Source: Alphaproteobacteria bacterium
GTDB taxonomy: Bacteria; Pseudomonadota; Alphaproteobacteria; SP197
Direction: 5' to 3'
Assembly: GCA_964291415.2 (NCBI GenBank)
Contig: OZ219917.1
Coordinates: 1,024,001-1,088,000 of the forward strand
DNA length: 64,000 nucleotides
Part shown: piece by piece, positions 7,918-64,000 of the stretch
How the letters are laid out: every line of letters starts with the position of its first letter
How positions within the stretch are numbered: the first letter of the stretch is position 1
The notes under the pieces: generated by a model
What the model saw: the letters and a program-made list of their open reading frames with translations, nothing else
Databases searched by the model: none
Told to the model about the DNA's origin: nothing
Position numbers and translations under genes: made by a program

Positions 7918-7920
7918 GCC

Positions 7921-44189: not shown

Positions 44190-44241
44190 GGTTCTGAGCC
44201 GCCATCATAGAATAACCGTGACACGGGAACACCCGGCAGGC

Positions 44242-46550: not shown

Positions 46551-46709
46551 CCCCAACAGCACCTCCCGGTCGGCCGCGACGGGTTGATGGCGGGTTGGTA
46601 CCGTAGGGTGACACTCAGCCACCAGCCGCGGCCGTTTCGTGCAGCCTGAGCGAGTCTGCCAAGTGAAGGAGTCGGGGCGTCGCGCGTCCGCGATGCACCG
46701 GGGCCGGGT

Positions 46710-47747
46710 TCAGTTCGTCTCGACCTTGCCGCCGGCCTCGCGCCAGGCGGCGATGCCGCCGATCATGTGGCAGACATTGCCGACGCCACTCTGGCGCGAG
46801 CTCTCCACCGCCATCGCCGAGCGCTCGCCGAAAGCGCAGTAGTAGACCAGCCGGTGGCCGGGACGGCCGGCGAGCGCGCGCAGCGCTCCGCCAGGCTCGA
46901 TCATCTCCGCGAGACGATCGTAGGGCGCATGCACCGAGCCGGGGATGGTGCCCTCGCGGGCCCGCTCGCCGGCCTCGCGCAGGTCGACGAGGATGTCGTC
47001 GGGCCGGTGGCCGTGCATCACTTCGCGTGCGCTCATCGCGCACTCAGGATGTGCCTCGTCCTCCTGGCCGCGGCCAACGCTCAGGTTCGCGGGCACGGCC
47101 ACGTCCATCATCTTGGGGTCGGCGAGATTCAGGCCGTCCATCAGCACCGCGTACTCTGCGGGCGAGGCGACCTGGAGGCGGGGATTGAAGCGCCTTTCCT
47201 CGCCGATGGTGCTCACCGTGTCGCCCTTGTAGTCGTGGCCGGGGTAGACCAGGGTCTCGTCGGGCAGGGTCAGCAACTTTCCGAAGAGCGAGTCGTACTG
47301 CTGCAGCGCGTCGCCGTTCTGGAAGTCGGTGCGGCCTGTGCCCCGGATCAGCAACGTGTCGCCGGTGAAGACGCGGTCCTCCATCACAAAGCTGTAGGAC
47401 TCCGCGGTGTGCCCCGGCGTGTAGAGCGCGCTCAGGCTCACGCCCTCGATCTCGATCAGGTCGCCGTCGCCGACGCGCATCGAGACCACGTCCACCGGCG
47501 CCTCCCGGCCCATCACGGTGACGCAGCGGGTGCGGTCGCGCAGTTCCGCCATGCCGCTGATGTGGTCGGCGTGGACATGGGTATCGAGCACCTTGGCAAG
47601 CGTGAGGTCGAGTTCGTCCAGCAGCGCGAGGTAGCGCTCCACCCGCTCCTCGACCGGGTCGATGATGAGCGCCTCGCCGCCGGCGCGTCCGCCCAGCAGA
47701 TAGGTGTAGGTGCCCGAATCCTGATGGTAGAGCTGGCGAAAGATCAT
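46710..47747 (-). CDS. Persulfide dioxygenase (ETHE1-like MBL fold) fused to rhodanese
   Basis: MIFRQL, TYTYL, DTHVHADHISG, TPGHT, FTGDTLLIRG.GRTDFQ and YPGHDY. Rhodanese part VDLRE..E...G.IPG and YC.FG.RS. Confidence 0.92.
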   Translation of the reverse strand: MIFRQLYHQDSGTYTYLLGGRAGGEALIIDPVEERVERYLALLDELDLTLAKVLDTHVHADHISGMAELRDRTRCVTVMGREAPVDVVSMRVGDGDLIEIEGVSLSALYTPGHTAESYSFVMEDRVFTGDTLLIRGTGRTDFQNGDALQQYDSLFGKLLTLPDETLVYPGHDYKGDTVSTIGEERRFNPRLQVASPAEYAVLMDGLNLADPKMMDVAVPANLSVGRGQEDEAHPECAMSAREVMHGHRPDDILVDLREAGERAREGTIPGSVHAPYDRLAEMIEPGGALRALAGRPGHRLVYYCAFGERSAMAVESSRQSGVGNVCHMIGGIAAWREAGGKVETN

Positions 47748-47948
47748 CGTCGGTCTCCGCCCTCTTGGTTTTCCGGACGCCATTGTAGAGCCTTGCGGCC
47801 GCGTCCGGCCAGCGTCATCCGGAGTTTCATCGCGCTGTTCCGGTCTCGCTGGTCCTTCGGCTACGATGGCGTTGGCAGGGGCCACCTGGCCTCCATCGCA
47901 ACGGCGCCCCGCGGGCGGTCGGAGCCCGTGGGTTGCGGGGGGCGGAAC

Positions 47949-49055
47949 ATGAAGATCAGGCGCATCAGCGTCTACCGGATCGATCTGCCACTGAAGGAAT
48001 CGTACGGCCTCTCGGGCGGGCGACTTGTGACCGAACGCCTTGACAGCACGTTTGTCAGAATTGACACCGACTGCGGTCTCGAAGGGTGGGGCGAGGGGTG
48101 TCCCTGGGGCCATACATACCTTCCGGCCCACGGCCAGGGGCTGAGGGCCTCGCTCGAGGTGCTGGCACCCTCTCTGCTGGGACGGGACCCGCGCGCTGTC
48201 GAAACCGTCAACCGGGCGATGGACGCCTGTCTCCCCGGTCACCTCTACGCCAAGTCGCCCATCGACATGGCCTGCTGGGATCTTGTAGGCAAGGCGACGG
48301 GTGAGCCGCTGTGGCGACTCTTCGGCGCAGAGGAGCCCGCTGCGGTCGAGATCAACTCATCGATTCCCACCGGCACGCCAGCGGCCATGGTGGCGGGAAT
48401 CGAACGGGCCCGCAGGGAAGGATACCGTACCCACTCGGCCAAGCTGGGCGGACATGATGCGGCAGCCGACATCGAGCGGATCGAAGCCATCGAAGATGCC
48501 CGGGTGGCAGGGGAACAGATCACCTGGGACATCAACCGGGCGTGGACGCCTGCGATTGCTTTCGAGGTGCTGAACACCGTCCCGTCCATGGCATGGGTGG
48601 AGCAGCCCTGCGAGACCCTCGAGGAGTGCGCCATGGTGGCACGCAAGGTCCGCCAGCCGGTGTTGCTGGACGAATGCCTGCATGACGTCAGGGATCATCT
48701 CCTGGCCTGGCGTGCCGGCGCCTTCGCCGGCATCAAGGTCAAGCCCAACCGCCTCGGCGGCCTGACGCGGGCGCGGCGCATCCGCGATCTCGCCATGGAC
48801 GTTGGCTGGAGGATGCACATCGAGGATGTTGGCGGCAGCGCGCTCGCCGACACCGCTGCGGTTCACCTCGCCGCCTCCACGCCACAGCCGTACCGCATGG
48901 CCAGCTGGCCGGCCCATGCCCACCTGGCTCGTGATCCCGTGCCCGGCCAGGGGGTACGCAATCGCGGCGGGTTCCTGGCGCCCACGGGGTGTCCCGGAAC
49001 CGGAGTGGTTCCCGATGAGGAGCACACGGGACCGCCGGTCGCTGTCTACGGTTGA
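47949..49055 (+). CDS. Mandelate racemase/MLE (enolase superfamily) enzyme, hydroxyproline/proline-betaine subgroup-like
   Basis: MKI..I..Y..DLPL, GWGE.CP.G..YLP, AKS.IDMACWD, D.N, EQP, LDE and K..R.GGLT. The true start is 47949, not the ORF-track 46767. Confidence 0.85.
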   Translation: MKIRRISVYRIDLPLKESYGLSGGRLVTERLDSTFVRIDTDCGLEGWGEGCPWGHTYLPAHGQGLRASLEVLAPSLLGRDPRAVETVNRAMDACLPGHLYAKSPIDMACWDLVGKATGEPLWRLFGAEEPAAVEINSSIPTGTPAAMVAGIERARREGYRTHSAKLGGHDAAADIERIEAIEDARVAGEQITWDINRAWTPAIAFEVLNTVPSMAWVEQPCETLEECAMVARKVRQPVLLDECLHDVRDHLLAWRAGAFAGIKVKPNRLGGLTRARRIRDLAMDVGWRMHIEDVGGSALADTAAVHLAASTPQPYRMASWPAHAHLARDPVPGQGVRNRGGFLAPTGCPGTGVVPDEEHTGPPVAVYG

Positions 49056-49127: not shown

Positions 49128-49160
49128 GACGGGGTACTCCTTCGAATGAGGGCGCCAGTC

Positions 49161-51518
49161 ATGGCAACAATCGGGACCGAACCGGGAGGCGTGGGCGTTG
49201 CCGAGACGAACGTGATTCAACCGACGTTCTGGAATGCTCTTCCCCATTTTCTTCCCATCACCATCTTCCCCCTCATCATCGTGGCGGCGTTGCTGGGAGG
49301 CTGGTGGATCCTTGCCCCCTTCGTTTTCTTCGGGCTCGCCGGCCCGCTCGACCTTGCCTTCGGCATGGACGGGCGGAACATGGATCCGGCGAAGACACCC
49401 GAGCGGCGCCTTTTCTGGCACAATCTCCCGGTCTGGCTGTGGGCCGTTCTGTGGCCTGCAACCTTTGTCTTCACGGCCTGGCAGATTCTTGTTTCCGGCC
49501 ACCTGACCGACTTGGAAGGCGCGTTGATGGTGTTCGTCCTGGCCATGGAGGCCCAGGCGGTCTTCATCGTCGGCCACGAGCTCATCCATCGCCGACGGCA
49601 ATGGGAACGCCGCCTCGGCGAGTTCCTGCTCGCTTCGGCTTCCTATCCGCAGTACGCCACGGAACATGTCTACATTCACCATGCCTTTGTCGGAACACCG
49701 CTGGATGTGGGATCGGCTCCAAGGGGTGAAAGCCTGTGGCACTACTTCCCTCGCGAGGTTGCCAACAACCTTCTCGGTTCGTGGCGTGTGGCGCGCGAGC
49801 GTCTGGCGCGCAAGGGACTGCCGGTCTGGCACCGCAGCAACCCGTTCTGGCGCTATGGCCTGGCGACGGCGTTCTGGTATGCCGTCGTCTTCGCGTTGGG
49901 CGGACCATGGGCGATTCCGGTCTACATGGCGCTCTGTCTCGGCGTTGTCTTCTCGATGAAAGTGTCCAACTACATCCAGCACTATGGGTTGCGGCGCGTG
50001 CGTGTGGCCGGAGGGCGTTTCGAGAAGATCCTGCCCCGGCATTCGTGGAGTGTGGACTACAGGTTCAGCAACTGGATGTTCTTCAACATGCAGCGTCATG
50101 CGGATCATCATGCCGTCTGGGGGCGCCGCTATCCCCTCCTGCAGTTCCGTGGCGCCGACGAGTCGCCGCAGCTGCCCGGGAGCTACGGCAAGATGTTCGG
50201 GCTGGCCGTGCGACCGAAACGCTGGTTCGAGACGATGGATCCGCTGGTCGACGAGTGGCGGGCGCGGTTCTATCCGCACATCGACGACTGGAGTGCCTAC
50301 GACAGCCCGGTGTCCGCCACGCGACCGGAGTCCTTTGACGCAATCGTTGAAATCTACGCCGCGGCGCCGCGGCTTGCCGGCTGGATAGAACGTCAGCCGG
50401 ATCTTCTCGACGAGTTGCGCAGCAAGGAGTTCACCGATCTTGATCTCCCGAAGGGATTCGGCCCCGACGCCGGGGCCGAGACAATCGCCCGGCAGGGCCT
50501 GACACGCCTCTACTGGACCCACGAGTTCGGGGTCGCCGACATGAAGGAGGAAATTGCCGAAACACCGGTTCAGGATGCCGGAGACCTCGTGGAACTCGTC
50601 CGCGGCTGGTCGAACCGCAAGGCCTTCCAGGTCGGCATGCACACGTTGCGGGGCAACCTCACGCCGGTGGAGGCAGGCGGGGCACTGGCCAGCATCGCCG
50701 AAGCGGCGATCGCCGCGATTCTCCAGGCTGTCGTGATCGACACGACCGAGCGCACCGGCGCGCCTTTCGATGGCGGCATCGCCGCGCTGGTTCAGGGCGA
50801 CCTTGCCACCCGGGAGGTGGCGCCGGACACCCCGATGGAGGTCATGTTCGTCCGCGACGGGGATTCCAGGGCCAGTCACGAAACGCTCTGTCGGGAGTTC
50901 CGCGACGCTCTTGGGGAACTCGCGCAGGACAGCCTGCTGTTCGCACCCGCAGGGGCCGGCGACGCGGGGAAGGACGTGTGGTCCCTCGAGGAGTTTGTCG
51001 CGTGCCACAGTGAGCCGGGTGAGGACCTTGCGCGCCTCGCCCGTGCGCGGTGCGTGTTCACCGGCGGCGAAACGGACCTTGGCGAGCGAATCGCGGCAGC
51101 AAGACGGGAGCTTCACGTTCCGAAGGGCGCGGGCACCGATGATCCTGCCGACATCGAAGAGGCGGCGCTCATCCTGCAGCTGACCCTCGCCATGGAGGAA
51201 CCCGCGCCTGCGGCCGGTTCGGTCTTCCGGCGTGCCAGGGAAAAGGGACTGCTTGCGGCCGCGGCCGCCGATGATCTGTGTGAAGCCGCCGCTCTCTGGC
51301 GCAACCTGAATGGAATCCAGCGCCTGGTGATTGAGGGGGGTGTTGTGGACGACGCCGTGCCGGAAAGGGTCAGGGCCGTCATCGCGCGCTCCTGCGGCAT
51401 GGCGGGATACGATGCCCTTGAAGCCGCCATGGCCGACGTGACGTCAAGGGCAGGTCATGCCGTCGCGTCGCTCCCTTCTCTGGCCGATGGCGAAGCGCCC
51501 GCGGACGAGTCCGGCTGA
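49161..51518 (+). CDS. AlkB-type membrane diiron hydroxylase/desaturase fused to a degenerate GlnE-like C-terminal domain
   Basis: His boxes HELIH, EHVYIHH, NYIQHYG and QRHADHH plus TM helices. From about 50320 it aligns by eye with the second half of the GlnE in this window. Confidence 0.85.
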   Translation: MATIGTEPGGVGVAETNVIQPTFWNALPHFLPITIFPLIIVAALLGGWWILAPFVFFGLAGPLDLAFGMDGRNMDPAKTPERRLFWHNLPVWLWAVLWPATFVFTAWQILVSGHLTDLEGALMVFVLAMEAQAVFIVGHELIHRRRQWERRLGEFLLASASYPQYATEHVYIHHAFVGTPLDVGSAPRGESLWHYFPREVANNLLGSWRVARERLARKGLPVWHRSNPFWRYGLATAFWYAVVFALGGPWAIPVYMALCLGVVFSMKVSNYIQHYGLRRVRVAGGRFEKILPRHSWSVDYRFSNWMFFNMQRHADHHAVWGRRYPLLQFRGADESPQLPGSYGKMFGLAVRPKRWFETMDPLVDEWRARFYPHIDDWSAYDSPVSATRPESFDAIVEIYAAAPRLAGWIERQPDLLDELRSKEFTDLDLPKGFGPDAGAETIARQGLTRLYWTHEFGVADMKEEIAETPVQDAGDLVELVRGWSNRKAFQVGMHTLRGNLTPVEAGGALASIAEAAIAAILQAVVIDTTERTGAPFDGGIAALVQGDLATREVAPDTPMEVMFVRDGDSRASHETLCREFRDALGELAQDSLLFAPAGAGDAGKDVWSLEEFVACHSEPGEDLARLARARCVFTGGETDLGERIAAARRELHVPKGAGTDDPADIEEAALILQLTLAMEEPAPAAGSVFRRAREKGLLAAAAADDLCEAAALWRNLNGIQRLVIEGGVVDDAVPERVRAVIARSCGMAGYDALEAAMADVTSRAGHAVASLPSLADGEAPADESG

Positions 51519-51535
51519 CGCATCCCGCATGTCAC

Positions 51536-52864
51536 ATGGCCCGCGATACTGGATATCCCCTGCAGAGCCCCATCGACGCGACAGACAAGCTCGCGGCGCG
51601 GGCCGGCTCTGACAGGGACTTTCGCCAGCGTCTCCTGGCACATCCCAGGGAGACCATCGAATCGGAACTCGGTGTGACCCTCGACGCAGATCAGGAAATC
51701 CATGTGCACGAAGAGTCGTGCACGGCCACCCACGTGGTGCTGCCACCGCTGGACAGGTACTCCAGGGCTGAGCGCGAGGAAGCGAAGACCGGCGCCGGAT
51801 CGTTGGAGTTCCTCCGCAGGACACTCCATGATCCGGCGCCGCCCGCGCGCGCCGCTGCCCCTGACCCGGCGAGACGCCGCGGAACCACGGCCTCTCCCCG
51901 GGCGCTTGCAGGAGAGGGCCGGCAGAGCATCCGCCGGGGTCTCGCGTTTCTCGAGACGACCATGGACGAACGGGGGGCATGGCACTGCATCCGGTTCAAC
52001 ATCGCCGATCCGGCGATACCGCGGCACTTTGAACGGCCGCCCTTCATCTCGGCGCTGTGCGCACTCGCCCTCGAGGCGTGCACTGAAGAGCGGGCCAGTT
52101 CCATCCGCGCGGCGACCAGGAGATATCTCGTCCACTCCATGGAGTACCCGGGGCTGTGGCGCTACTACCGCCACCTTCCCGCGGATCTGGACAGCACGTC
52201 GCTGTGCTCCCTTGCCCTCTCCGGTCATTCGTGGATCGCTCTGGGCAGGAATGTTCCGCACATGCTGGCGAACCGCGACGCCGATGGCCTTTTCCAGACC
52301 TGGCTGCTGTCGGAAGACGAACCCGATGTCGCGTCGGACTTCCGTATCGAGGCCGACCCCGTTGTCAATGCGAATGTCATCGCCTGCCTTGGCTGTCACC
52401 CCGCGACCAGGGAAGCCCGGCACTGGCTGGAGAACAAGGTCGTCGAAGACCGGCTTGAGAACGCGTCCAAGTGGTATCCCGACACGATCACGGCCTACTA
52501 CGCGATCGGCCGCGCCATGGTCCGGGCCGCCCCGGCCCTTGAGGGACTGCGCCCGGTTCTCGTTGAACGCATCCTGGCGCTCTGCGATGACGAGGGGGGA
52601 TGCGGCAATCTCCTGCAGACCTCCCAGGCCGTCACGGCGCTTCACACCATCGGGGGTCTTGAAGCCATTGACGTGACGCGCCAGGTGGAACGCTTCGTCG
52701 ATGCGCAACGGGACGATGGCAGCTGGCCGGAGTATCTGGCGTTTGGCGATCAGTCGCTGCGGTGGGGTGCGATCGGGCAGATCGGTCACGGTTCCGAGTC
52801 CGTGACTTCCGCGTTCTGCATCGAGGCCCTGGGGCACATGATCAACATCCTCGAGGGACGATGA
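51536..52864 (+). CDS. NHLP-leader-like domain fused to a prenyltransferase/class II terpene cyclase-like alpha/alpha-barrel domain
   Basis: N-terminus D.DFRQRLLA.P..TI..ELG.....I.VHE.....H.VLPP parallels the precursor leader. C-part has GLWRY, ADLDST, D.VVNANV and the QW motif AQRDDGSW. Confidence 0.8.
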   Translation: MARDTGYPLQSPIDATDKLAARAGSDRDFRQRLLAHPRETIESELGVTLDADQEIHVHEESCTATHVVLPPLDRYSRAEREEAKTGAGSLEFLRRTLHDPAPPARAAAPDPARRRGTTASPRALAGEGRQSIRRGLAFLETTMDERGAWHCIRFNIADPAIPRHFERPPFISALCALALEACTEERASSIRAATRRYLVHSMEYPGLWRYYRHLPADLDSTSLCSLALSGHSWIALGRNVPHMLANRDADGLFQTWLLSEDEPDVASDFRIEADPVVNANVIACLGCHPATREARHWLENKVVEDRLENASKWYPDTITAYYAIGRAMVRAAPALEGLRPVLVERILALCDDEGGCGNLLQTSQAVTALHTIGGLEAIDVTRQVERFVDAQRDDGSWPEYLAFGDQSLRWGAIGQIGHGSESVTSAFCIEALGHMINILEGR

Positions 52865-53024
52865 AGGGGAAGGGGCGCGTTTGGGCACCTGACGCCTGCC
52901 GGTTCTTCATGTTGCCGGCCATGCGGGCGAGTTCCTGCCTTGCGCCGGCGGCCCTGCTCGACAGACGGGTTCCGGCGCATGCAGGATCCCTGGAATCGAG
53001 TCGTTTCCGGGGACGTTCGCGGGT

Positions 53025-55346
53025 GTGGACGACAGCACCGTGACCGCAGGCACGACCCCACAGGGGATCCTGACCAGGTGGACTCCCGGGGATCGGGGTT
53101 CCGTCAGGACACCCTTGCTCACTCCGCACCTTGAGTTCCGCGCGATTGGTGACGATCGGGCGCTGCTGGTCTCCGAATCCTTCAACACCCTGCTGCATGG
53201 CAGACTGTGCTGCGATCTGATGCCTCTTCTCGACGGACGGCGCGAGGAGGATGGCATCATCGCGGCTCTCGACGGGATCCACGACGCCCGCGACGTTCGT
53301 TCCACCATCTCCTCGCTTTCCGAAAAGGGCTACGTTGTTTCAGGCGAACATGCGATGGACCGGCAGCGGGCGGCCTGGTGGACGTCGCTTGGTGCATCCC
53401 CACGCTGGGTCGAGGAACAGCTGGCGCTCTCGCGGGTTGTGGTCGAGGGAGATGAGGGAGAACTGGCCGCCTGCCTTGCCGTGTGCGGTGCCGTTTCGGG
53501 AGCCGAGGGGAAGGCCAGTCTCAGGATTGTTGTCTGCAACGATTATCTGGAACCGCGCCTCGAGGAGGTGAACCGGAGACAGCGCGAGGCGGACGAGCCG
53601 TGGATGCTTGCGCGGCCCCATGGCGTGCAGGCGCTCTTCGGTCCCGTCTTCCGGCGCCAGGGGCCCTGCTGGGAATGTCTGGCCAGCCGCATGCGCAGCC
53701 ACCAGGAAGTCCACGCGTTCCTTCGCAATGTGGCCGGAGAGGACGCCGCCTTCAGACCATTTGCCTCGGAAGGCGTGGTGCGGGACGGATTGTTGAGGCT
53801 GATTGCCGCAGAGATCGTCAAGTGGCTGGTCCTTGGCGAGACGGCTGCCGTCCATGATGAAGTGATCGCCGTCGATACCGGCGACTTTGCTGTTTCACGG
53901 CATCGGGTCATGCGCCGGCCGCAGTGCCGCGCCTGTGGAGACGATGGGTTGCACAGATCCGACCGTGCGCCGGTACCGGTGTGCCTGAACGCAAGTCCAA
54001 AGGCTGTTCGGACCAGTGGCGGTGCACGCTGCGTGGCGCCGGAAGCGACCCTGGCGACCTACCGGCACCTGGTCAGTCCGGTCAGTGGTGTCGTGACCTG
54101 GCTGTCGCGTACCACCGATGAAAGCGACCCGTGGCTTCATGTCGACTGGGCCGGAAGCAACCTGGGCATGAGGAGCCGCAGCCTGGCCTCCCTCAGGCGC
54201 AGTCTTCGCAGCAAGAGCGCCGGCAAGGGGAGCACGCCGGTGCAATCCAGGGTCTCTGCCCTTTGCGAGGCGATCGAGCGCCATAGCGGAACCCGGTCAG
54301 GTGACGAGATCCGCATTCGCAGGACATTCAACGGGTTCGACGGGAACGAAAGCGCGATTCACCCCAACGACGTGCAGTTGTTCAGCGACAACCAGCTCGA
54401 CAACGCAAAAGACATCAACGAGAAGGGTCACCCCTACAACATCGTGCCGGCCCGCTTCGACCCTGACGCGGCGGTCGACTGGACTCCGGTGTGGTCGCTG
54501 ACCCAGCGGCGACATCGCTATCTGCCGACGTCGATGCTTTACAGCATGGCGGCCGAGGAGCGTGGTCCGGCGGACCTGATCGCCGATTCCAACGGTTGCG
54601 CTGCCGGCAACACCCTGGAAGAGGCCATCCTGCAAGGCTTCTATGAACTCGTCGAACGCGATGCCTTCGCCATCTGGTGGTACAACCGGCTCAACATGCC
54701 GGCGGTCGATCCCTGCGCCTTCGATGACCCGTACCTTCTCGATGCAACGGCCGTCTACGCCCGCCACGGGAGGGAAGTGTGGATGCTCGACATCACGTCC
54801 GATTTCGGTATCCCAACCTTCGTGGCACTCTCTCGCAGAGTCGACGCCGCCAGCGAGGACATCATCTACGGCGCCGGGACCCATGCCGTTCCGCGACTGG
54901 CCGCCCTGCGGGCGGTGTGCGAACTGAACCAGTGTCTGACGTGGCTGCCGCGGCCCGGAAGCCGCGACGGCCGGCCGACGATCGATGACCCGTTTGTGCT
55001 GTCATGGTGGAGAACCGCGCGCCTTGCCGGATGCCCGTGGCTGGCGCCGGCAACCGAGGGGACGGCTGGCAGGGCGTCGCAGCCTTCCATCGCAGACTCG
55101 GCGGATACGCGCGACGATGTGGAAAGCTGCCGCGCGCTTGTGGAAGCCAGGGGCATGGAGTTCCTGGTGCTTGACCAGACCCGCCCCGACATCGGAATGC
55201 CGGTTGTCCGTGTCATCGTGCCGGGGATGCGCCACTTCTGGGAACGCTTTGCCCCGGGCCGTCTCTACGAGGTGCCTGTCAGCCTGGGATACCGGGCGCA
55301 TCCGCCTGGTGAATCCGACCTCAACACCGCGCCTGTCATTGCCTGA
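53025..55346 (+). CDS. Fused TOMM leader-binding/YcaO cyclodehydratase (SrpC-like)
   Basis: E1-like part (GPVF...GPCWECL..R, RPQC.ACG). YcaO ATP motifs SAGKG, SALCEAIER and SNGCAAGNTLEEAILQGFYELVERD, then PVVRVIVPG.RHFW.RFAPGRLY. Confidence 0.93.
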   Translation: MDDSTVTAGTTPQGILTRWTPGDRGSVRTPLLTPHLEFRAIGDDRALLVSESFNTLLHGRLCCDLMPLLDGRREEDGIIAALDGIHDARDVRSTISSLSEKGYVVSGEHAMDRQRAAWWTSLGASPRWVEEQLALSRVVVEGDEGELAACLAVCGAVSGAEGKASLRIVVCNDYLEPRLEEVNRRQREADEPWMLARPHGVQALFGPVFRRQGPCWECLASRMRSHQEVHAFLRNVAGEDAAFRPFASEGVVRDGLLRLIAAEIVKWLVLGETAAVHDEVIAVDTGDFAVSRHRVMRRPQCRACGDDGLHRSDRAPVPVCLNASPKAVRTSGGARCVAPEATLATYRHLVSPVSGVVTWLSRTTDESDPWLHVDWAGSNLGMRSRSLASLRRSLRSKSAGKGSTPVQSRVSALCEAIERHSGTRSGDEIRIRRTFNGFDGNESAIHPNDVQLFSDNQLDNAKDINEKGHPYNIVPARFDPDAAVDWTPVWSLTQRRHRYLPTSMLYSMAAEERGPADLIADSNGCAAGNTLEEAILQGFYELVERDAFAIWWYNRLNMPAVDPCAFDDPYLLDATAVYARHGREVWMLDITSDFGIPTFVALSRRVDAASEDIIYGAGTHAVPRLAALRAVCELNQCLTWLPRPGSRDGRPTIDDPFVLSWWRTARLAGCPWLAPATEGTAGRASQPSIADSADTRDDVESCRALVEARGMEFLVLDQTRPDIGMPVVRVIVPGMRHFWERFAPGRLYEVPVSLGYRAHPPGESDLNTAPVIA

Positions 55347-55355
55347 GGGAGTGTC

Positions 55356-56534
55356 ATGGACACAGACAAGGCCATCGCACTGACCCAGGACCTTCTGGCC
55401 CAGGAGGGCGGGACCATGGGCGACCTGCTCGGTCACTTCCGGAACAGGGTGTCGCCGACCCTCATCGATGACGCTGAATGGGATCGTGTCCTGGCATGCG
55501 CCCGAACCCTTCCCATCACGATGGGCGCGCTTCCCTTCGGTTTTGAACTGCCGCTGCATGTGCCGGAGCCACAGGCGGATCTAGGCGTATCCATGGCGAG
55601 TGGAACCAGATCGGCGGAGTTCTTCCGGGAGCGCGCCCGGGTTCACAGGACCGATGATACCCTCGGCACACTCATGCGACTCTTCGATCACATGGAAGGC
55701 GGGGTCTCACCCTTGCGCGACATTGTCGGCCGCAAGGTGATGCTGGAGTACGACATCGGCTCGGCTGAAGGCGGTACGCCTTCGCGTCCGGCCTTGTTCC
55801 TGAGGCCCGGTGAACGACCGATCGTCGGCGCGGGCGGCCAGGTCGATGATGTCCTGCTGGTGGGCGATGCCCTTGTTTCGAGTCACGGCTGGACGATGGG
55901 TGCAGGCCAGCGCAAGGCACTCTCGCAGGCCTACCTGGCGCAGCCGGAGGATACGCGCATGGACTCGTTCGGGATGTTCCCGTCCCGCTCACGCGCCGTC
56001 CGGCTGGCCATCATGGGGTTCGCAAACCGCCGGCAGATCGAAACCTACCTGGACAAGGCGGGGTGGCCAGGCGAAGCCGCGGCCGTCGATGCGGTCATGG
56101 CACGTTTCATGGAACGCGTGAACATCGTCAGGACCGGGGTGAACATTGACGTGACGGAAGAGGGGCTGGGCCCCGCCCTCGGTCTGACGCCGATCGTCCG
56201 GCAGAGGTACACCAAGGATTCACGGTACTGGCTCGATGGCCTGACCGACTGGGCGCCGTTCCTGGACGCCCTGAGTCACGAGGACATTGTCGTGCCCGGC
56301 AAGCTGGAAGCGCTGGCAGGCTGGGTCTCGAAACCGGAACACCTGTTCGCACGGTCCGGACGCTACGTGCTGCTGCGAGGCATCCACCATGTCAAGCTGG
56401 TCATTTCGGCGAACCGGCTCTGCAAGGCCAAGGCCTATGTCTTCATGGTGCTTGTCGGGCGCCGTGTCACTCTGACGCCGAACACAACGGCCCCCGATCC
56501 GGATCGAACCGGGGCAATCCTCGCAGGTTCTTGA
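55356..56534 (+). CDS. Conserved hypothetical RiPP-associated protein (possible prenyltransferase)
   Basis: 392 aa, GGGAG RBS, 9 bp after ycaO. Motifs FGFE..L, LEYD, GWPG and HHVKL..AKAY. Function inferred only. Confidence 0.7.
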   Translation: MDTDKAIALTQDLLAQEGGTMGDLLGHFRNRVSPTLIDDAEWDRVLACARTLPITMGALPFGFELPLHVPEPQADLGVSMASGTRSAEFFRERARVHRTDDTLGTLMRLFDHMEGGVSPLRDIVGRKVMLEYDIGSAEGGTPSRPALFLRPGERPIVGAGGQVDDVLLVGDALVSSHGWTMGAGQRKALSQAYLAQPEDTRMDSFGMFPSRSRAVRLAIMGFANRRQIETYLDKAGWPGEAAAVDAVMARFMERVNIVRTGVNIDVTEEGLGPALGLTPIVRQRYTKDSRYWLDGLTDWAPFLDALSHEDIVVPGKLEALAGWVSKPEHLFARSGRYVLLRGIHHVKLVISANRLCKAKAYVFMVLVGRRVTLTPNTTAPDPDRTGAILAGS

Positions 56535-56535
56535 G

Positions 56536-56559
56536 GGCGCGCCGCCGTCACGGCGCGCC
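56536..56559. terminator. Hairpin between convergent genes
   Basis: GGCGCGCCG-CCGTCA-CGGCGCGCC, 9-bp stem, no U-tract. Confidence 0.45.
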
Positions 56560-56570
56560 GACAACGGCAG

Positions 56571-56822
56571 TTACCAGCAGCAGCACAGACCGGCCGAGAC
56601 CGCTTCGAGCTGCTCTTCGGTAATGTTCGGGTCGGGCGGCAGTGCAACATGCACCGTCTGCATGTCACTCTGATGAACCACGACGTTCATCGAGTCTGGA
56701 ATCGTGATTCCAAGTTCGTTGCAGATGGTCCCTTTCGGATCTGCAAGAAGCTCTTGCCTGAAACCGGCGTCGACAGCGGATTTGTCGACAATCTGCTGCA
56801 ACATCTCATTGCCGTTTCTCAT
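56571..56822 (-). CDS. srpE: Proteusin/NHLP RiPP precursor, 83 aa, core LCCCW (SrpE-like)
   Basis: GGAGAG RBS then MRNGNEMLQQIVDKSAVDAGFRQELLADPK...VHVALPP...TEEQLEAVSAG-LCCCW*. NHLP leader with a double-glycine-type (AG) cleavage site. Confidence 0.9.
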   Translation of the reverse strand: MRNGNEMLQQIVDKSAVDAGFRQELLADPKGTICNELGITIPDSMNVVVHQSDMQTVHVALPPDPNITEEQLEAVSAGLCCCW

Positions 56823-56908
56823 GGCCACTCTCCACTGATCTACCTTAATTGTGCCGGCGAGTATGCCGGAATCCTCATTGAAAAAGTGTACAGGCCGGAT
56901 TTGCCGGG

Positions 56909-59215
56909 TCAAGCATTTCCGTTCGTGTTGTTGCCGCGGTCAACCATCCGCAACAGTGCGGGCAGGAGCGTCAGGTCGGCAAGGAGTGCAAAGGCGATGA
57001 TCAACGCCGTCAGGATCCCCACCTGTGCGGTGGGAATGAAGGGAGAGAAGGCGAAGATCAAGAAGCCGGCCACCAGGACGAGAGTCGTCGTGAAGACGGC
57101 GCGGCCGGCAGTGTCGAAGGCGTAGCGCACGGACTCCCCGCTGTCCTTGCCATGGTCGAGGCGCGCTTTGCGGTACTTGCTGAGAAAGTGCACCGTATCG
57201 TCGACAACGATACCGACCGTCATGGCCACGACGACCGACAGGGAGAGTCCCACCTGCCCCACCGTCAATCCCCAGACGCCGAAACCCAGCACGGCCGGGA
57301 GCAGGTTGGGAATGATGCTGATCAGGCCCAGTCGCAAGGATCTGAGGGCGAAGAGGAGTATGGCGGAAATCGCGAGCAGCACGACCATGGTTCCGACCAG
57401 CATGGCCCGGATATTGCGTTGACCGATCCAGGCGAACAGCACCGCCGGTCCGGTGCTGTTGACGCCGGCCACGTTGGGTGCGTTGTCGCTCAGCCAGGCC
57501 CTGGCCCGTGCGTTCAGTTCAAGCAGTTCCTGAGAGCCGAGAGACTGGGCCTGGACCGATACGCGTGTTGCCGACTTTGACCAGTCGATCTGGTTGTTCA
57601 CGTCCAGGCCCTGAGGCAGGGAGAGCTCGTAGAGCAGCAGGTACTGTGCGGCCAGCTCCCGGCTTTCGGGGAGGCGGTAGGCATCAGGGTCGTCACCATG
57701 CATGGTCTGGTTGAGACGCCGGAAGGTATCGGTGATGACGGCGACGTGGCGCACTCGCGGCTGGTCGCGGTACCAGTCGGCGAACGCGGCGACATCGGTG
57801 AGGAACGCCGGGTCCGTGACGCCGCCTTCGGCGGGAGCTTCCAGCGAATACTCGAGCAGGGTGTTGCCGCTCAGCCGCTCGTCCATGAAGTCCGTGTCCT
57901 GGCGGAACTCGACACTCTCGTCGAAGAAGTGGACCAGGACATCGTTGAGCTCGTTTCGCGGGATCGCGAGGATCATCGCAATGACGAGCACCAGCCATCC
58001 AAGGATGATCAGCTTTCCGTGCTTGATCACAACGTCGGCCAGGTGGTGCATTGTCGGCGCCTGCGGCCGCCTGTTCCTTGGCGCGCGAACGGGGAGCAGC
58101 GACAGCATGGCCGGAAGAAAGGTCACGGACAGGATGAAGGACGTGACGATTCCGATGGCGACAAAGCAGCCGAGTTCACGATAGGGGGGCACCTCGGAAA
58201 AGTTCATGCCCAGGAATCCAAGGGCGGTCGTGAGGCTCGCAAGGAAGATCGGGTGCAGGTTGAGCCTGATGGCTTCGACGATGGCATCGTGTTTCGAATC
58301 GCCCGCGCGCAGACGTTGCTGCAGGGCAACCAGCAGGTGAACGCAGTTGGCCACGACAATCATGAGGATGATGGTTGGCGCCGGGGCGATGGGCGGAGAA
58401 AACTCCAGGCCGATCCAGGCCCCCAGGCCCATGGAGGCCAGTATGGAAAAGATGATGACAAGGCCGGTGGTCACCACGCCCGGCCAGCCCCGGACGAGAA
58501 TGCCGAGAATCAAGGCCATGAGAAGGAGGCTGGCCGGCAGGAAGATCATCTGGCTTTCAACCGAAGCCTCGAGAAAGGTCTGGTTGACCATCACCGTACC
58601 GACGATGCGAAGATCAACGCCGGGGAAACGCGTCTCTGCCTCGGCGGCTATCGTTCGGGCGAATTGCGCCACTTCGGCCACGGCTTCCAGCTGGTCGCCT
58701 TCAGGCATTTCCAGAGTGACATTGACAACGCTGACATCGCCATTGCGGGCCAGCATGCTGCCGGCGATGCGGGGGTCGAGGAGGGCAATGTCACGGATGC
58801 GTGACCGTGCTTCAACCCGCGTCAGTTCCTGCGGATCGACCAGGTCCTGAACCACCAGGTCATCGCCGTCGGCCGTCGTGTACTGGAAGTTGGCCAGGGA
58901 GTCGACGCGCCGTGACCAGGGTGTCTGCCAGGCAGCCTCGGTCAGCCAGACGGCGGCAGAGAGCGCCTCGGTGGAGGTCGCATCGCCGTCGTCGGGAACA
59001 ATCAGGAAGACGACATTCTCGTTCTTTCCATAGGTGTCTTCCAGGTCTTCCAGCGCCAGAAGCTGCGGATTGTCGTCATCAAAGAAAATGCGGTAGTCGG
59101 CGGAGAATTCCAGCAGGAGCATGCCGACGGAGGCAAGAGCGACCAGGATGGGCGCAACGAGGATGACCAGCCAGCGGTTGGCGAGCACCCGTTCCGCATA
59201 ACGTTCAGCCGTCAT
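56909..59215 (-). CDS. MMPL/RND-family exporter
   Basis: Two repeats of TM + periplasmic loop + 5 TM. LTTALGF, GIVVDDTVHF and LLPALL. Confidence 0.9.
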   Translation of the reverse strand: MTAERYAERVLANRWLVILVAPILVALASVGMLLLEFSADYRIFFDDDNPQLLALEDLEDTYGKNENVVFLIVPDDGDATSTEALSAAVWLTEAAWQTPWSRRVDSLANFQYTTADGDDLVVQDLVDPQELTRVEARSRIRDIALLDPRIAGSMLARNGDVSVVNVTLEMPEGDQLEAVAEVAQFARTIAAEAETRFPGVDLRIVGTVMVNQTFLEASVESQMIFLPASLLLMALILGILVRGWPGVVTTGLVIIFSILASMGLGAWIGLEFSPPIAPAPTIILMIVVANCVHLLVALQQRLRAGDSKHDAIVEAIRLNLHPIFLASLTTALGFLGMNFSEVPPYRELGCFVAIGIVTSFILSVTFLPAMLSLLPVRAPRNRRPQAPTMHHLADVVIKHGKLIILGWLVLVIAMILAIPRNELNDVLVHFFDESVEFRQDTDFMDERLSGNTLLEYSLEAPAEGGVTDPAFLTDVAAFADWYRDQPRVRHVAVITDTFRRLNQTMHGDDPDAYRLPESRELAAQYLLLYELSLPQGLDVNNQIDWSKSATRVSVQAQSLGSQELLELNARARAWLSDNAPNVAGVNSTGPAVLFAWIGQRNIRAMLVGTMVVLLAISAILLFALRSLRLGLISIIPNLLPAVLGFGVWGLTVGQVGLSLSVVVAMTVGIVVDDTVHFLSKYRKARLDHGKDSGESVRYAFDTAGRAVFTTTLVLVAGFLIFAFSPFIPTAQVGILTALIIAFALLADLTLLPALLRMVDRGNNTNGNA

Positions 59216-59385
59216 GTGCCATCTCTCCACGGCTGTCCCTCACCACCGTGTCGGACACGACCACACTCGACGCTCGCGGACGGATCGTCGAAAGCAGGGA
59301 ATCATGGGGAAGGGCGCTCATTGCGGCAGGTCGCAAAACAAGGTTGGGCCGGCCCGAATGCCATGTCAACGGTCCGCTTCACGGG

Positions 59386-62306
59386 TCAGGCGATCTGGCG
59401 TCTGACCAGATTCCGGAAGACGCCATCGATGTCCATGAGTTCGCTGAAGGAGCCGCTCTCCACAATCTTCCCGGCTTTCAGCACATGGATGCAGTCAGCC
59501 TTCTCCAGCGTCGACAACCGGTGCGCGATGACAAGTCTCGTTGTGGTCAGAAGGGCGAGGTTCTGCATGACCTCGGCCTGGCTGTCGTTGTCGAGCCAGT
59601 TGGTTGCCTCGTCGAGGAGCATGATTCGCCGGTCGCCGATGAGGGAGCGGGCAATGGTGACACGCTGGCTCTCTCCGCCGGAGAGAACCGAACCGCTGCC
59701 CCCGACCATCGTCATCATTCCCATGGGCATGGCCTTGATTCCGCTTTCTATTCCGGCCGCCCGGGCAGCCTCCCAGACCTCTGCAGGCCCCACTCCCTCG
59801 TGGTGCGCGACAATGTTGTCCCAGATGTCCTGGGGGTGCAGCCGCACCGCCTGGGGTACGGTGCCTATCTTGCGGCGCACCTGCTTGAGATTGAGGTGCT
59901 TGAGGTCCCGTCCGTCGTAGTAGACGGCCCCGGACGTCGGCTGGTCGATACCAAGCGCCAACTGGAAGAGCGTGCTCTTTCCGGCACCGGATTCACCGGC
60001 AATCGCGACGAATTCGCCGGGACGGACATGGATTGTGACATCATCGAGAACCAGGGGCCCTTCGGGTTCGTATCGGAATGACACATGGTCGAACAGGATC
60101 TCGCCGCCGAGACGCTCGACCAGCGCACCCTCTTCCCCGGCTTCGGGAACCGCGGCAAGCAAGGGGCGCATCTGCCTGAATGCCGGCACCAGGGCAGCCA
60201 CGGCGCCGACCGATTCACCAAGACGGGCCACAGCCGATTGAGACGCGATGAACACCATGAAGACGACGAGGAAATCGCCGACCGGAAGCGTCCGCGTTTC
60301 GAATGCCGCCACCGCAAACAGCAGCACCGCTCCGGCGAAGAACGGAAGAGCGGCGCCAAAGGCACGGACGTGCTCCTCGATACGGTGGACTTCGAGCTCC
60401 GCGCGCTTTTGCTGGCGATAGTCCCCGGCCCATATGGCGAAAGCCGATCCTTCCGCACTTTCCACACGCAGCTTGGCGATGCCGCCGATGATCTGGAACA
60501 GCCGTCCGGTCACGCGTCTGGCCGCGCTGATCATTCGTCCCTGGGGTACGAGCTGGCGCAGCCCCAGCACGACGGTCACGAGAAGCGAGAGGAGGCTGAA
60601 AGCGAGAACGACAAGACCCAGAGAGGTATCGTAGAAGAAGGTGATCCCGAGAACCGGAACGAGAAACAGGATTGACAGCAGGCTGTCGGACACGACTCCC
60701 TGCAAGCCGTCACGAACATTCTGGAATGTCATGCCCGACATCGCCAGGTCACCGGTTGGCTGGCGACGCAGGACAGCGGGCGGAAGGCGCATGAGGCGGT
60801 CCCAGAAGGCTGCTTCGACCCGCGATGCCGAACGTCCTTCCAGGCGCATCAGAATCGTGCTTTGCAACAGCTGAAGCAAAGCGCCCAGAAGACCGAATCC
60901 CGCCAGTGTCACAGCCACGACATAGAGGATGCCGACGGTTCCGCCGGCCGTGGCCTGGTGAGCCACAAAACCAAGCGCCAGCACCGGCAACAGCTTGATC
61001 AGGCCGCCGAAGAACCCGGTTGCCAAGAGCCGGGCAAGATCGGCGCCCGACCCCTTGAAGGCGATGTCCAGGAGATCGGCCGGCTTGACGGACCTTGACG
61101 GCAATGGCCGATAGAACATCCAGGCTTCAGCCTTCAGCCGCCGGCGCGCTCGCCTGCGATCCGGACGCTGCGTCCGCTCGCCGGGTCGACCTCACGATAG
61201 TGCCCGAACAATCCCGGCAGCAGGACGACAGGCCTGTCGTCGTCGGACCGGAATGCCAGAATTGCGCTGCTGTCTCCACGCCACCATGCATTGTCCGGGG
61301 AGATCCTGAGGCGGCGGGCACGGACGCCGGACGCATCGAGAATGTCCGTGAGAGCGGGCGCGGAACCGGAGGCGTGGCGTGGCGGGATCCTGAAATCGAT
61401 TCCCTGGTGGCGGCCGATGATCTTCAGTGCGTCCGCAAGTGCCGTGTCGCCGATGTCCTCGCCGATCGGCATGTCGTACATGTTGAACAGCTTCTGGCGC
61501 GCGTCGCGCTCGGCCGTGCGCCGGCTGGCGATCCGCGCGCGTTCCAGGTTTGCCTCATCGACCACCGCCAGTTGCCGGTTGAGCCGCTCAAGCGCGAGAG
61601 CGGCAGCATGAAACGTGGCCAGTGCCGGCAACAGGGTGCCCTGTTCGGCCAGTGACCGGCTCGATGTGCCGGACACGGTGACCCCTGCATGGAAGGTGAG
61701 CCAGCTTGTCCGGGTCAGCGGCACCAGGGTTTCGCCGCGACCGCCTTCCTCCGGTTCGATCATGTCCATGTAGAGACCGGCGCCGTGCGAGGGAATGGAT
61801 ACCCACACAACGCCCTGGCGTACGGAAAGAATGCAGGACTCCAGGGACCGGGTCACACCGGGTTCGGCGAGGGCAGTGGCGTATGGAATGCTGCCGACGA
61901 ATCGCGACAGGGTTTCGGTGATGGCCTGCAACCACGTGTCCGTCTGTTGCGCCAGTTCAGCCGGATCGACTTCGTGGAGCAGGGACACCGGCAGACGCAT
62001 CAGAAGGGTGTCCGGCAGTCCCTTCGCCAGCAGGCCAAGTGTCGTCTCCTTGCCGTCGCCTTCAGAATCCGGCGCGACACCGGGCAACAGTTCACCTGCC
62101 TCGCGGCGAAGCAGGTGTTGTGGTGACGCCTGCTCCACTCCGTCCCTGAATTCCACCAGGAAGAGATCGACGCTGCCCCTGGCAATGAACCACACGTGAT
62201 CGGGTTCATCGAGCGGCACCGGCAGGTTACCGGCGCAGGGACAGGGCTTGCCGGCGCGTTGCGCGAGTTCGGCAATCGATGTGTATGGAGGCGACTGATC
62301 GCGCAT
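59386..62306 (-). CDS. NHLP bacteriocin system ABC transporter ATP-binding/permease subunit with one frameshift at about 61140
   Basis: N-piece has a cyclic-nucleotide-like domain (VWFI..G.VDLF) and WWRGD...LAF...PV.LLP. C-piece has FYRPLP, GESGAGKST, LSGGE.QR and LDEAT. Adding one base at gccgg|cggctg restores RLKAEAWMFYRP. Confidence 0.85.
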
Positions 62307-64000
62307 CAGCCTGACCTGGTCAGTCGCGAGTAGACGCCATCGGCATTGGCGATCAGTTCGTCGTGGGTGCCCCGCTCCACTTCACGGCCCCCGTCGAGCA
62401 CGATGATCTCGTCGCAGTCACGCACCGCGCTCAACCGGTGCGCCACGATCAGGCACGTGACGCCACGCCGACGCAAGGCATCGTCGACATACTCTTCCGT
62501 TGCCGCGTCAAGGGCGCTGGTTGCCTCGTCGAGCACGAGCACGGTCGGATGACCCACCAGGGCACGGGCAATCTCCAACCGCTGGCGCTGGCCGCCGCTG
62601 AAGTTCATGCCGCCCTCCTCGACAAGGGTGGCGTACCCGAGAGGGCGTTTCAGAATGTCCTCATGGATGCAGGCGTCCCTTGTCGCATCGACGATGACCT
62701 CATCCGGAACGGCCGGGTTCCACAGGGTGATGTTGTCGCGCAAGGTTGCGGAAAAGAGCACGGTTTCCTGGTTCACCATGGAAATGGACCGCCGCAGCAC
62801 CTCCTCGGGAATCTCCTGGCGAGGGTGGCCGTCAAACAGGATCTCACCCGACCAGGGTTGATAGAGTCCCGCAACCAGATGCGCCAGGGTCGACTTGCCG
62901 GAACCGCTGGCTCCCACCAGAGCGACCCGCTGCCCGGGATTCAGGATGAGGTTGAAGTCAGAAATCAGGGGTGGCCGGCTCCTGTTGAAACCGAAGGTGA
63001 CGTTTCTCAGTTCGACCTTTCCTGCAAGCTGGAGGCGCCTGTTGAACGTCGTGATGGAAACCCGGTCCGGTTCCCGGCGGCTGAACACGGGATCCTCCGT
63101 GGCCCTGGCAACGTCTTCCAGCCTCTGCAAGTCGGTTTCGAGAGCCTGCCGCCTGTCGGCGAACTCCAGGAATCGCCCGACAGGCGCGAGAAACATCTCC
63201 GCCAGGATGTAGAAGGCGACCAGTGTCCCCAGGGTCATGGAGCCGGTCATGACCATGGTGCCGCCGATCAACAGGATTGTCGCGCTGCGCAGAGCGGCGA
63301 TCAGGTCCGGCAGGGCGCCATTGAGCGCACCCAGTTCGAAGTGGGCCTGGCGCGCACGAAGTTCGCGGGCCTGATGACCGCCCCAGCGTGCAAAGAACCG
63401 GTCGTCGGACCCGGTCATGCGCAGGTTGTCGGCATGGTTGAGCATCTGCATGCCGATGCCGAGCAGAAGTCCCTGTTCGCGCCGCATGGCCTGGCTGCGC
63501 ACGGCGCGCCGGATATTGAAGACGTGGGCGAGTCCCGCATGGATGAGAGCCAGCGACAGCACGACCAGTGCCAGCACGGGATCGTAGGCGAGCAACACCG
63601 CGAACAGCACGGCGCTCGTGGCCATGTCGATGATGAGCACCAGAAACTGCTCTGTCAGGGTTTTCGCCACCCGGTCGAAGGATGACACCCGGTCCGTCAG
63701 GTCGCCGGCAAGCCGGTGTTCGAAGAACTCGACGGGCAGGCGCAGCAGCTTCGTCAGTCCACGGCTGTAGCCGGTTACCGATATGCGGATGGCGAGCCGC
63801 TTGAGAAACCTGTGCTTGAGCAGGGTCAGCAGGTAGACGAGCACACCGCCGCCGATGAGCGCGGCCACAAGGCCAATCCAGGTTCCCTGGTTCAACAGGA
63901 CATGGTCGACGAAGGCGCCAAGGACTGCCGGCACAACCAGCGACAGCAGTGTCAGCATGAGCGCGCAGGCCGCCACTCCGGCAAGCGAACTCCACAGTCC
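62306..64000 (-). CDS. NHLP bacteriocin export ABC transporter (peptidase/permease/ATPase), 5' end outside the window
   Basis: LRLPV.FF..R..GD, GASGSGKST, F..TLRDNITLWN, NFSGGQRQRLEIARAL and LDEATSALD. The C39 domain is expected upstream but not visible. Confidence 0.88.
   Translation of the reverse strand, partial: GLWSSLAGVAACALMLTLLSLVVPAVLGAFVDHVLLNQGTWIGLVAALIGGGVLVYLLTLLKHRFLKRLAIRISVTGYSRGLTKLLRLPVEFFEHRLAGDLTDRVSSFDRVAKTLTEQFLVLIIDMATSAVLFAVLLAYDPVLALVVLSLALIHAGLAHVFNIRRAVRSQAMRREQGLLLGIGMQMLNHADNLRMTGSDDRFFARWGGHQARELRARQAHFELGALNGALPDLIAALRSATILLIGGTMVMTGSMTLGTLVAFYILAEMFLAPVGRFLEFADRRQALETDLQRLEDVARATEDPVFSRREPDRVSITTFNRRLQLAGKVELRNVTFGFNRSRPPLISDFNLILNPGQRVALVGASGSGKSTLAHLVAGLYQPWSGEILFDGHPRQEIPEEVLRRSISMVNQETVLFSATLRDNITLWNPAVPDEVIVDATRDACIHEDILKRPLGYATLVEEGGMNFSGGQRQRLEIARALVGHPTVLVLDEATSALDAATEEYVDDALRRRGVTCLIVAHRLSAVRDCDEIIVLDGGREVERGTHDELIANADGVYSRLTRSG

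Follow-up and report, generated by a model that had tools for sequence, protein, structure and literature searches.

An srp-type proteusin cluster whose conserved companion genes may add an isoprenoid to the peptide

Which modifications does the peptide of an srp cluster receive, if three genes resembling an oxygenase, a terpene cyclase and a prenyltransferase accompany its YcaO gene? This question is raised by a cluster at the end of a 64,000-nucleotide stretch of contig OZ219917.1 (GCA_964291415.2, Alphaproteobacteria bacterium, SP197), which was analysed as a whole and is called the window in the following. The cluster spans about 49146-66658; the part 49146-64000 lies in the window, and the rest was read on the contig past the window end. 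Judged from the sequence, the region is a full biosynthetic gene cluster of the srp type, i.e. for a sponge-derived proteusin, a peptide made by ribosomes and modified after translation (RiPP). We propose that genes A, B and D give the srp peptide an isoprenoid, so that a terpene-peptide product would be formed, and put the probability of this at about 0.58. The reading rests on predicted folds, one conserved motif and gene linkage. From 49146 to the window end two convergent operons were found, A-B-C-D on the plus strand and the exporters, a pump and the precursor on the minus strand. The genes on which the argument turns are the following.

A, 49146-51518, plus strand, 790 amino acids: predicted AlkB-type oxygenase with a GlnE-like tail
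B, 51536-52864, plus strand, 442 amino acids: NHLP leader fused to a predicted class II terpene cyclase
C, 53025-55346, plus strand, 773 amino acids: winged helix (like a RiPP recognition element), E1-like and YcaO domains, counterpart of SrpC
D, 55356-56534, plus strand, 392 amino acids as called: ABBA-fold protein, putative peptide prenyltransferase
E, 56571-56822, minus strand: NHLP (proteusin) precursor of the SrpE type, ending SAG-LCCCW

Srp clusters were reportedly described by Nguyen et al. in JACS in 2021. For the known system a SrpE core LCCCW, the formation of three thiazolines by the YcaO enzyme SrpC, the action of the brominase SrpI on the C-terminal Trp and the leader motif NLTEEQL are on record (PMC10858898, PMC10286304). 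A leader variant with ITEEQL occurs in sponge bins, and srp clusters are highly transcribed in sponges (10.1101/2023.06.09.544420).

The back-translated pattern of LCCCW matched once in the window (56574-56588, minus strand), and 0 of 100 shuffles matched. The core closes the open reading frame (ORF) 56571-56912(-), which ends ...NITEEQLEAVSAGLCCCW and scores 60.2 bits against TIGR03793 leader_NHLP (cut-off 50.9). Translation probably begins at ATG 56822, which makes a peptide of 83 amino acids; the leader reads ...NITEEQLEAVSAG ahead of the core LCCCW and contains the motif NITEEQL. The nearest solved sequence was the NHLP structure MprE7 (8tb1, 3.4e-9). For gene C, matches to PF02624 (1.1e-95), PF21084 (5.9e-7) and TIGR03882 (6e-38), a winged-helix domain and a score above the TIGR03604 cut-off (260 bits vs 219) were obtained. 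As in other srp clusters, the YcaO gene is thus encoded beside the precursor.

A sequence-only reading of the window had named this precursor, the fused YcaO, two NHLP ATP-binding cassette (ABC) exporters, an MMPL exporter and three further genes on the YcaO strand, and had placed them in an srp-type cluster. All were recovered, with coordinates right to within one alternative start codon, and the LCCCW core, the SrpC-type YcaO and a SrpI-type halogenase fit the published description (PMC10858898).

Linkage of genes A, B and D to srp precursors

Around relatives of D, 80 genome loci were fetched, and linkage was counted on the 56 of them with 10 kb on both sides. By their titles the loci represent six phyla or more (Alpha- and Gammaproteobacteria, Acidobacteriota, Gemmatimonadota, Opitutales, Binatia, others), and a few record titles suggested a sponge origin of related loci. 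The following counts within 10 kb of the D relative stand for linkage and not for independent events, since the loci are kin by descent and transfer.

B: 55/56
ABC2 exporter: 55/56
YcaO (C): 51/56
ABC1 exporter: 50/56
Precursor (E): 48/56
A: 40/56
Short HlyD-like gene: 35/56
Halogenase: 25/56
MMPL transporter: 24/56

An SrpE-like precursor was present in 67 of the 80 loci, and 67 of the 68 precursor matches end in LCCCW. The gene order differs between the loci; B, C and D remain close together. Across phyla the relatives of B and D show about 65-70% identity. Genes A, B and D are conserved core members of the srp family, not extras. In the sequence-only reading the three genes formed an added isoprenoid arm, which was to be given up if they did not co-occur with LCCCW precursors. 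The co-occurrence was found and the gene calls stand at the level of predicted fold; the notion of an addition does not stand, with B at 55 and A at 40 of the 56 loci.

Predicted folds of genes D, B and A

Gene D probably starts at 55416, which gives 372 amino acids. More than 800 relatives with many phylum labels and about 70% identity were obtained; most of those listed have 370-373 amino acids and cover 93-94% of D. No Pfam or NCBIfam family matched D, and Pfam searches with 19 distant relatives gave chance-level matches only, none of them to a prenyltransferase family. An AlphaFold2 model built on 31 sequences (pLDDT, the predicted local distance difference test, 78.9) contains five beta-beta-alpha-alpha repeats. 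With this model, all Foldseek matches were aromatic prenyltransferases (6-DMATS, EpzP, CloQ, IptA, LimF, NphB). In the structure comparison with VIA, 301 residues of D could be aligned with the indole prenyltransferase MpnD at Z 18.0; the best 50 rows were all aromatic prenyltransferases, and 129 chains reached a Z of at least 8. In a protein-language search the nearest named Atlas clusters were Trp_DMAT (0.90) and PTase_Orf2 (0.88). The model thus assigns D the ABBA (PT-barrel) prenyltransferase fold. In this fold, a barrel of ten antiparallel strands, the diphosphate is bound by basic and Tyr residues that line the inside. Candidates for such residues are R191, R196, K327, K339, Y341 and E44, which are conserved across the D family and lie on or adjoin strands. 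Longer, fused forms of D were searched for and none was found, which is weak evidence. A complex prediction of D with the cyclase domain of B scored 0.00 against a mark of 0.32 and was counted neither way.

Gene B consists of an NHLP leader-like part (about residues 16-90), a conserved linker SLEFL..DPAPP and a single-barrel domain of the class II cyclase type (about 120-442). The model of B reached a pLDDT of 65.5. Foldseek placed MstE (2e-8) and the drimenol synthase AsDMS on top, and VIA gave Z 25.4 to AsDMS (268 residues, root-mean-square deviation 3.0) and 23.6 to MstE. The top 32 rows were all class II cyclases (lowest Z 18.3), and the first unrelated barrel, a glycosidase, followed at Z 17.0. 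A profile of the domain sequence matched AsDMS at 1.7e-5. In the alignment LPxDLDST of B stands opposite FPDDLDTTS of AsDMS, with DLDST at residues 217-221, and the D333N mutant chain of AsDMS reads N (DLN) opposite Asp219, which marks Asp219 as the position of the catalytic acid. DLDST is invariant in 33/33 and 32/32 B sequences. Pfam families SQHop_cyclase/Prenyltrans were not reached in B (PF13243 with 20.5 bits, under the cut-off of 26.1, and a single repeat at residues 361-400). PF28380, which is listed for some B relatives, was absent on rescanning two such relatives and B itself at E up to 10. At fold level, B is predicted to be a class II terpene cyclase like MstE and drimenol synthase, with the catalytic Asp kept.

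The leader-like part of B had been missed in the earlier reading of this gene. Residues 16-71 score 43.9 bits against TIGR03793, under the cut-off of 50.9, and the leader is collinear with true precursors up to the cleavage position (slash): TGAG/SLEFL in B, VSAG/LCCCW and GSGG/YY in the precursors. We conjecture that the leader nucleus serves as a docking domain to a partner which recognises the folded part of NHLP leaders, and that the cyclase is thereby placed in the enzyme assembly. Alternatively, B might itself be cargo: the C39 domain would cut its leader after GA[GAT], and the exported cyclase would work beyond the cytoplasm. In favour of this are the leader's alignment with real precursors, which extends to the very position of cleavage, and the high conservation of the linker past it. 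It is unlikely, however, that an NHLP-type exporter would accept a folded barrel of 35 kDa. B furthermore lacks the LxxxxL motif, and its hydrophobic pattern at -4, -7 and -12 is replaced by charged residues (YSRAEREEAKTGAG), the replaced motif being the contact for the double-Gly leader protease LahT (PMC10858898). Export of B is thus hardly credible.

Gene A matched PF00487 (1.2e-26), and its residues 28-369 matched the alkane 1-monooxygenase structures 8f6t (2.7e-43) and 8sbb (1.8e-39). The His-box residues are conserved to at least 97% in an alignment of 68 relatives, and the AlkB-specific boxes NYIxHYGL and QRHxDHH are present. The GlnE-like tail reached 25.7 bits in Pfam and 58.9 bits in NCBIfam against a cut-off of 724. 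It is conserved to about residue 520 only; residues 520-790 are poorly conserved and carry no DxD, and a nucleotidyltransferase activity of the GlnE type was rejected for these reasons. Among the cluster ORFs no rubredoxin or ferredoxin partner appeared in the general family scans, which included no search aimed at rubredoxin and did not extend over the genome. By homology, A is an AlkB-type membrane di-iron oxygenase with a degenerate GlnE-like C-terminal region. The calls of a prenyltransferase at 55356, a cyclase at 51536 and an oxidation gene at 49161, made beforehand from the letters of the window, agree with the predicted folds of D and B and with the structure matches of A.

A different task for A would be the oxidation of the thiazolines to thiazoles instead of the terpene, in place of a missing flavin mononucleotide-dependent dehydrogenase. 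A SagB-type dehydrogenase (TIGR03605) gave 0 matches in the whole genome, A accompanies YcaO in cluster types with and without Trp in the core (see below), and PF00487 covers desaturases besides hydroxylases. The best matches of A are nevertheless alkane 1-monooxygenases, the boxes specific for AlkB are in place, and in 16 of the 56 loci A does not lie within 10 kb. To our knowledge, no azoline oxidation by the AlkB-type family is known. We regard this function as improbable. A nitroreductase-like ORF (L001 10152-10904, E 4.4e-6, about 5.5 kb past the halogenase) was considered as a cluster dehydrogenase and set aside, because it lies beyond an oligopeptide ABC importer and because TIGR03605 had no match in the genome.

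Core sequence, acceptor and proposed pathway

Metagenomes were scanned with distant D relatives. This yielded 39 loci, 30 of them with a readable precursor core (16 LCCCW, 14 non-Trp), which compare as follows.

D, identity to D of the window: 60-73% at LCCCW loci, 34-50% at non-Trp loci (short L131: no scorable match)
Cyclase B: 11/16 LCCCW loci vs 0/14 non-Trp loci
Halogenase: 8/16 LCCCW loci vs 0/14 non-Trp loci
A: 10/16 LCCCW loci vs 10/14 non-Trp loci
YcaO: 12/16 LCCCW loci vs 12/14 non-Trp loci

The association of the cyclase with the core type was significant in a Fisher test (p = 8.7e-5, uncorrected for relatedness), and in the five LCCCW loci that lack B, the sequence upstream of D is shorter than 2.6 kb. 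As cores without Trp, the following were read: LCCCGF, LCCCGI (three), LCCCG, RCCC (three), LCCCT, LSCCL (three), LCCCL and LCCCI. It follows that cyclase and halogenase go with Trp, and that the D-like and AlkB-like genes belong to a wider family with CCC cores.

Sister loci of the non-Trp type (L095-L099, L105, L114, L116, L121, L122, L124, L125, L127, L130, L131) still have YcaO and the AlkB-like gene together with an ABBA-fold gene that has diverged, and are without cyclase and halogenase. Locus L113 has both an LCCCW and an MCCCGI precursor.

Trp had been named in advance as the prenylated residue. This claim did not hold for the family: a D relative is present at all 14 loci with a non-Trp core (at L131 as a short match), none of which has the cyclase, so that indole cannot be the acceptor family-wide. 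The isoprenoid arm may then be real with an acceptor other than the Trp indole, at a position shared by all CCC-type cores such as the C-terminal carboxylate, an uncyclised Cys sulfur or the N-terminus newly formed when the leader is removed, and Trp would be the partner of cyclase and halogenase only. At the non-Trp cores, D relatives of 34-50% identity occur with A and YcaO, B and halogenase being found at none. The termini of muscoride, an azole peptide, are prenylated by cyanobactin-type enzymes. Mixtures of partly cyclised SrpE, obtained with SrpC in E. coli (PMC10286304), also speak for such an acceptor. Against it, ABBA enzymes with 35-50% identity frequently use different acceptors, so that a common one is not required of the subfamilies; in structure, D is closest to indole prenyltransferases; and Trp is the acceptor in NctPC (PMC13290415). 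Taken together, a non-indole acceptor is considered unlikely, though it is the alternative to be taken most seriously.

This genome also contains a second NHLP cluster (L092, G000:C1:734001-754000, about 3072-15720), whose precursor ends GSGGYY. It contains two D paralogues (31% identity), one adjoining the precursor and the other beyond the exporter genes, and furthermore two P450s, a methyltransferase, HlyD, a C39-ABC1 and an ABC2 of 982 amino acids. No YcaO and no cyclase were found in it. This cluster is an independent case in which the D family goes with proteusin precursors whose aromatic cores are tiny, and its product may be a prenylated Tyr-Tyr. Elsewhere in the genome, two tandem NHLP-like matches lie in one frame of 310 amino acids (G000:C4:1350466-1350858, minus strand); this is probably a protein of the nitrile hydratase alpha type and not a precursor.

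For the terpene-peptide reading the following pathway is proposed. By homology, YcaO would convert the three core Cys to thiazolines (-54 Da), the flavin-dependent halogenase would act on the C-terminal Trp, and the C39-ABC exporter would cleave behind SAG and carry the product out. D would attach a prenyl or oligoprenyl chain to the leader-bound core, at its C-terminal end or close to it. B would protonate the distal double bond of this chain via Asp219 and cyclise it, the cyclisation probably ending on or beside the indole. A, in the membrane, would oxygenate the hydrocarbon part, and the HpnN-like MMPL pump would handle or move the lipid-like product. Since the genome has synthases of the farnesyl diphosphate (FPP) and octaprenyl types only, and since the nearest sequence relatives of B act on farnesyl, we lean weakly to a C15 chain. 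For the 79Br tris-thiazoline core a mass of about 650.08 Da was computed; with a C15 group this rises to 854.268 Da, and a further oxygen brings it to 870.263 Da.

Srp clusters belong to the most widespread peptide clusters in sponge microbiomes. In its fullest form the proposal is that the srp end product, long cryptic, is a brominated tris-thiazoline pentapeptide with a cyclised, hydroxylated sesqui- or diterpene, made with a stand-alone ABBA prenyltransferase of a new sequence family and a cyclase recruited by the leader naturally fused to it, and that the non-Trp sister clusters give linear prenylated analogues. We offer this tentatively, as possible with somewhat less than even confidence.

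Several results weigh against the terpene-peptide reading. D lies outside the known prenyltransferase sequence families (Trp_DMAT, PTase_Orf2, cyanobactin prenyltransferases). A D profile of 91 sequences found no prenyltransferase in the PDB, its sole row being PomB at a chance-level E of 0.64. Without a match in Pfam, NCBIfam or this profile search, D is classed as working like an ABBA prenyltransferase and not as a member of these sequence families. The model of B is middling, and the stretch with DLDST (residues 203-218 and beyond) is under pLDDT 50. The cores of the non-Trp loci with D relatives often have no nucleophilic side chain (LCCCGI, LCCCL, LSCCL). No prenyl diphosphate synthase was found in the cluster, and the genome holds one of the FPP-synthase type and one of the octaprenyl type only. 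To these come the kinship of the loci behind the linkage counts, the 16 of 56 loci without A within 10 kb, and a frameshift in the ABC2 gene, by which this copy of the cluster may be impaired unless the assembly is in error.

B and D might accordingly be no peptide catalysts at all, being either scaffold or binding proteins with old folds or parts of a separate pathway to a small meroterpenoid, the peptide product then being nothing more than the brominated pentapeptide with its three thiazolines. The missing family membership of D and the missing synthase gene would suit this view, and the heterologous modifications needed SrpC and SrpI only (PMC10858898, PMC10286304). It is opposed by the invariance of the catalytic Asp motif of B in 33/33 sequences, by the fusion of B to a leader of the precursor type and by the way in which the presence of B tracks the core sequence. 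B and D, which keep about 65-70% identity between phyla, are moreover linked in 55 of the 56 loci, and this points to selection on function. For these reasons a non-catalytic role of both proteins is judged very improbable, and the attachment of an isoprenoid by A, B and D is preferred.

Exporters, surroundings and comparison with known systems

The remaining genes of the cluster lie upstream of the precursor on the minus strand.

F, 56909-59230, minus strand, 773 amino acids: RND transporter of the MMPL/HAE3 family
ABC2, 59386-62306, minus strand: NHLP exporter (permease/ATPase) in two ORFs, 61134-62306 and 59386-61119
ABC1, 62306-64516, minus strand: NHLP exporter with N-terminal C39 peptidase, crossing the window end at 64000
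Short HlyD-like gene, 64518-65060, minus strand, 180 amino acids: beyond the window
Trp halogenase, 65159-66658 (extrapolated window coordinates), minus strand: beyond the window

Gene F matched PF03176 (1.2e-34), HAE3 TIGR00921 (9.1e-41) and HpnN-like TIGR03480 (1.3e-39), all under the curated cut-offs, and is closest to the HpnN hopanoid-transporter type. Likewise under the curated cut-offs were the matches of the ABC2 ORF 59386-61119(-) to TIGR03797 (1.9e-173) and of the window part of ABC1, 62306-64000(-), to TIGR03796 (1.5e-188). On the contig the whole ABC1 has 736 amino acids and a C39 domain (PF03412, 5.7e-34).

Positions 111-686 of TIGR03797 match the downstream ABC2 ORF and positions 2-102 the end of the upstream one. 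According to the alignment with L010 and L012, the gene is split by a one-base deletion in a run of G near 61139 (61119-61140). Of 59 related loci, 58 have the two parts in a single open frame. The split would mean either that the gene is a true pseudogene or that the assembly is wrong in this homopolymer.

No halogenase was found inside the window. In the genome PF04820 gave two matches only, both parts of the one gene at 65159-66658(-), which lies 643 bases beyond ABC1. It matched PF04820 with 1.5e-44 and RebH/PrnA with about 1e-24. The HlyD-like ORF of 180 amino acids aligned with the two ends of the HlyD encoded in the second NHLP cluster (1e-6 and 3e-4). A C39 peptidase, an HlyD gene and a halogenase beyond position 64000 had been anticipated from the window, for which the absence of a halogenase and a flavin dehydrogenase had been noted.

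The window is GC-rich throughout (0.62-0.68). On the left flank (44170-49055) two S-Me-THD-like genes and a cis-3-hydroxyproline dehydratase-like gene were found, and on the right flank, past the window (L001 4604-11992), a DAO oxidoreductase, an oligopeptide ABC importer and a gene of the proline racemase family. The cluster looks like an insertion into a region for the use or catabolism of hydroxyproline. The ORF 46767-49055(+) is listed with 762 amino acids, and its dehydratase homology is confined to residues 395-759. The true start of this gene is probably near 47950; the upstream part overlaps the long minus-strand ORF 46710-48242.

In general, the window cluster appears to be a typical srp cluster. 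It has in common with SrpE, SrpC and SrpI the LCCCW NHLP precursor, the (I/L)TEEQL motif, a YcaO expected to form three thiazolines and a Trp halogenase (PMC10858898). No structural difference from srp clusters was noted, and what is added here is the fold-level reading of three conserved genes. Cyclodehydration and bromination are the only srp steps reconstituted in the papers cited (PMC10858898, PMC10286304), and the accessory genes of LCCC proteusin clusters appear as 'several genes of unknown function' in a survey of 2025 (PMC11832590). The literature searched, including PMC12537861 and without the original srp and NctPC papers, gave no tie of srp to prenylation or terpene cyclisation.

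RiPP maturases of the NctPC type were reportedly described by Hubrich et al. in Chem in 2024. NctPC is a fusion of an ABBA prenyltransferase and an MstE-like cyclase, which geranylgeranylates Trp and then cyclises (PMC13290415). Both RiPP pathways would pair an ABBA-fold prenyltransferase of low similarity to the cyanobactin enzymes with a class II cyclase of one domain. As far as a comparison by description goes, the two activities would in contrast be encoded in the window by two distinct genes on either side of YcaO, the cyclase carries a fused NHLP leader, and the pathway adds thiazolines, bromination and an AlkB-type enzyme.

MstE (merosterolic acid synthase of Scytonema) and the drimenyl cyclase domains AsDMS and SsDMS share with B the single alpha/alpha-barrel fold and the acid motif D-x-D-[ST]-T. 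According to the titles of its PDB entries, MstE cyclises a prenyl chain already bound to an aromatic ring. B has 15-20% identity to these enzymes and differs from them by its N-terminal NHLP domain and by its substrate, which would be a peptide conjugate. The AlkB structures 8f6t and 8sbb share with A the membrane di-iron domain and all His boxes, but A has about 420 additional C-terminal residues, which are GlnE-like and carry no conserved nucleotidyltransferase motif. New with regard to the known systems are the separate genes for prenyltransferase and cyclase, the leader-bearing cyclase and the AlkB-type partner; the original srp and NctPC papers may cover part of this.

If the proposed attachment of an isoprenoid is true, a defined set of enzymes and product masses to be sought (854.268 and 870.263 Da) are at hand for the srp family. 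D would then represent a prenyltransferase family without a Pfam model, and the leader-bearing cyclase would bear on the recruitment of enzymes by the large NHLP leaders.

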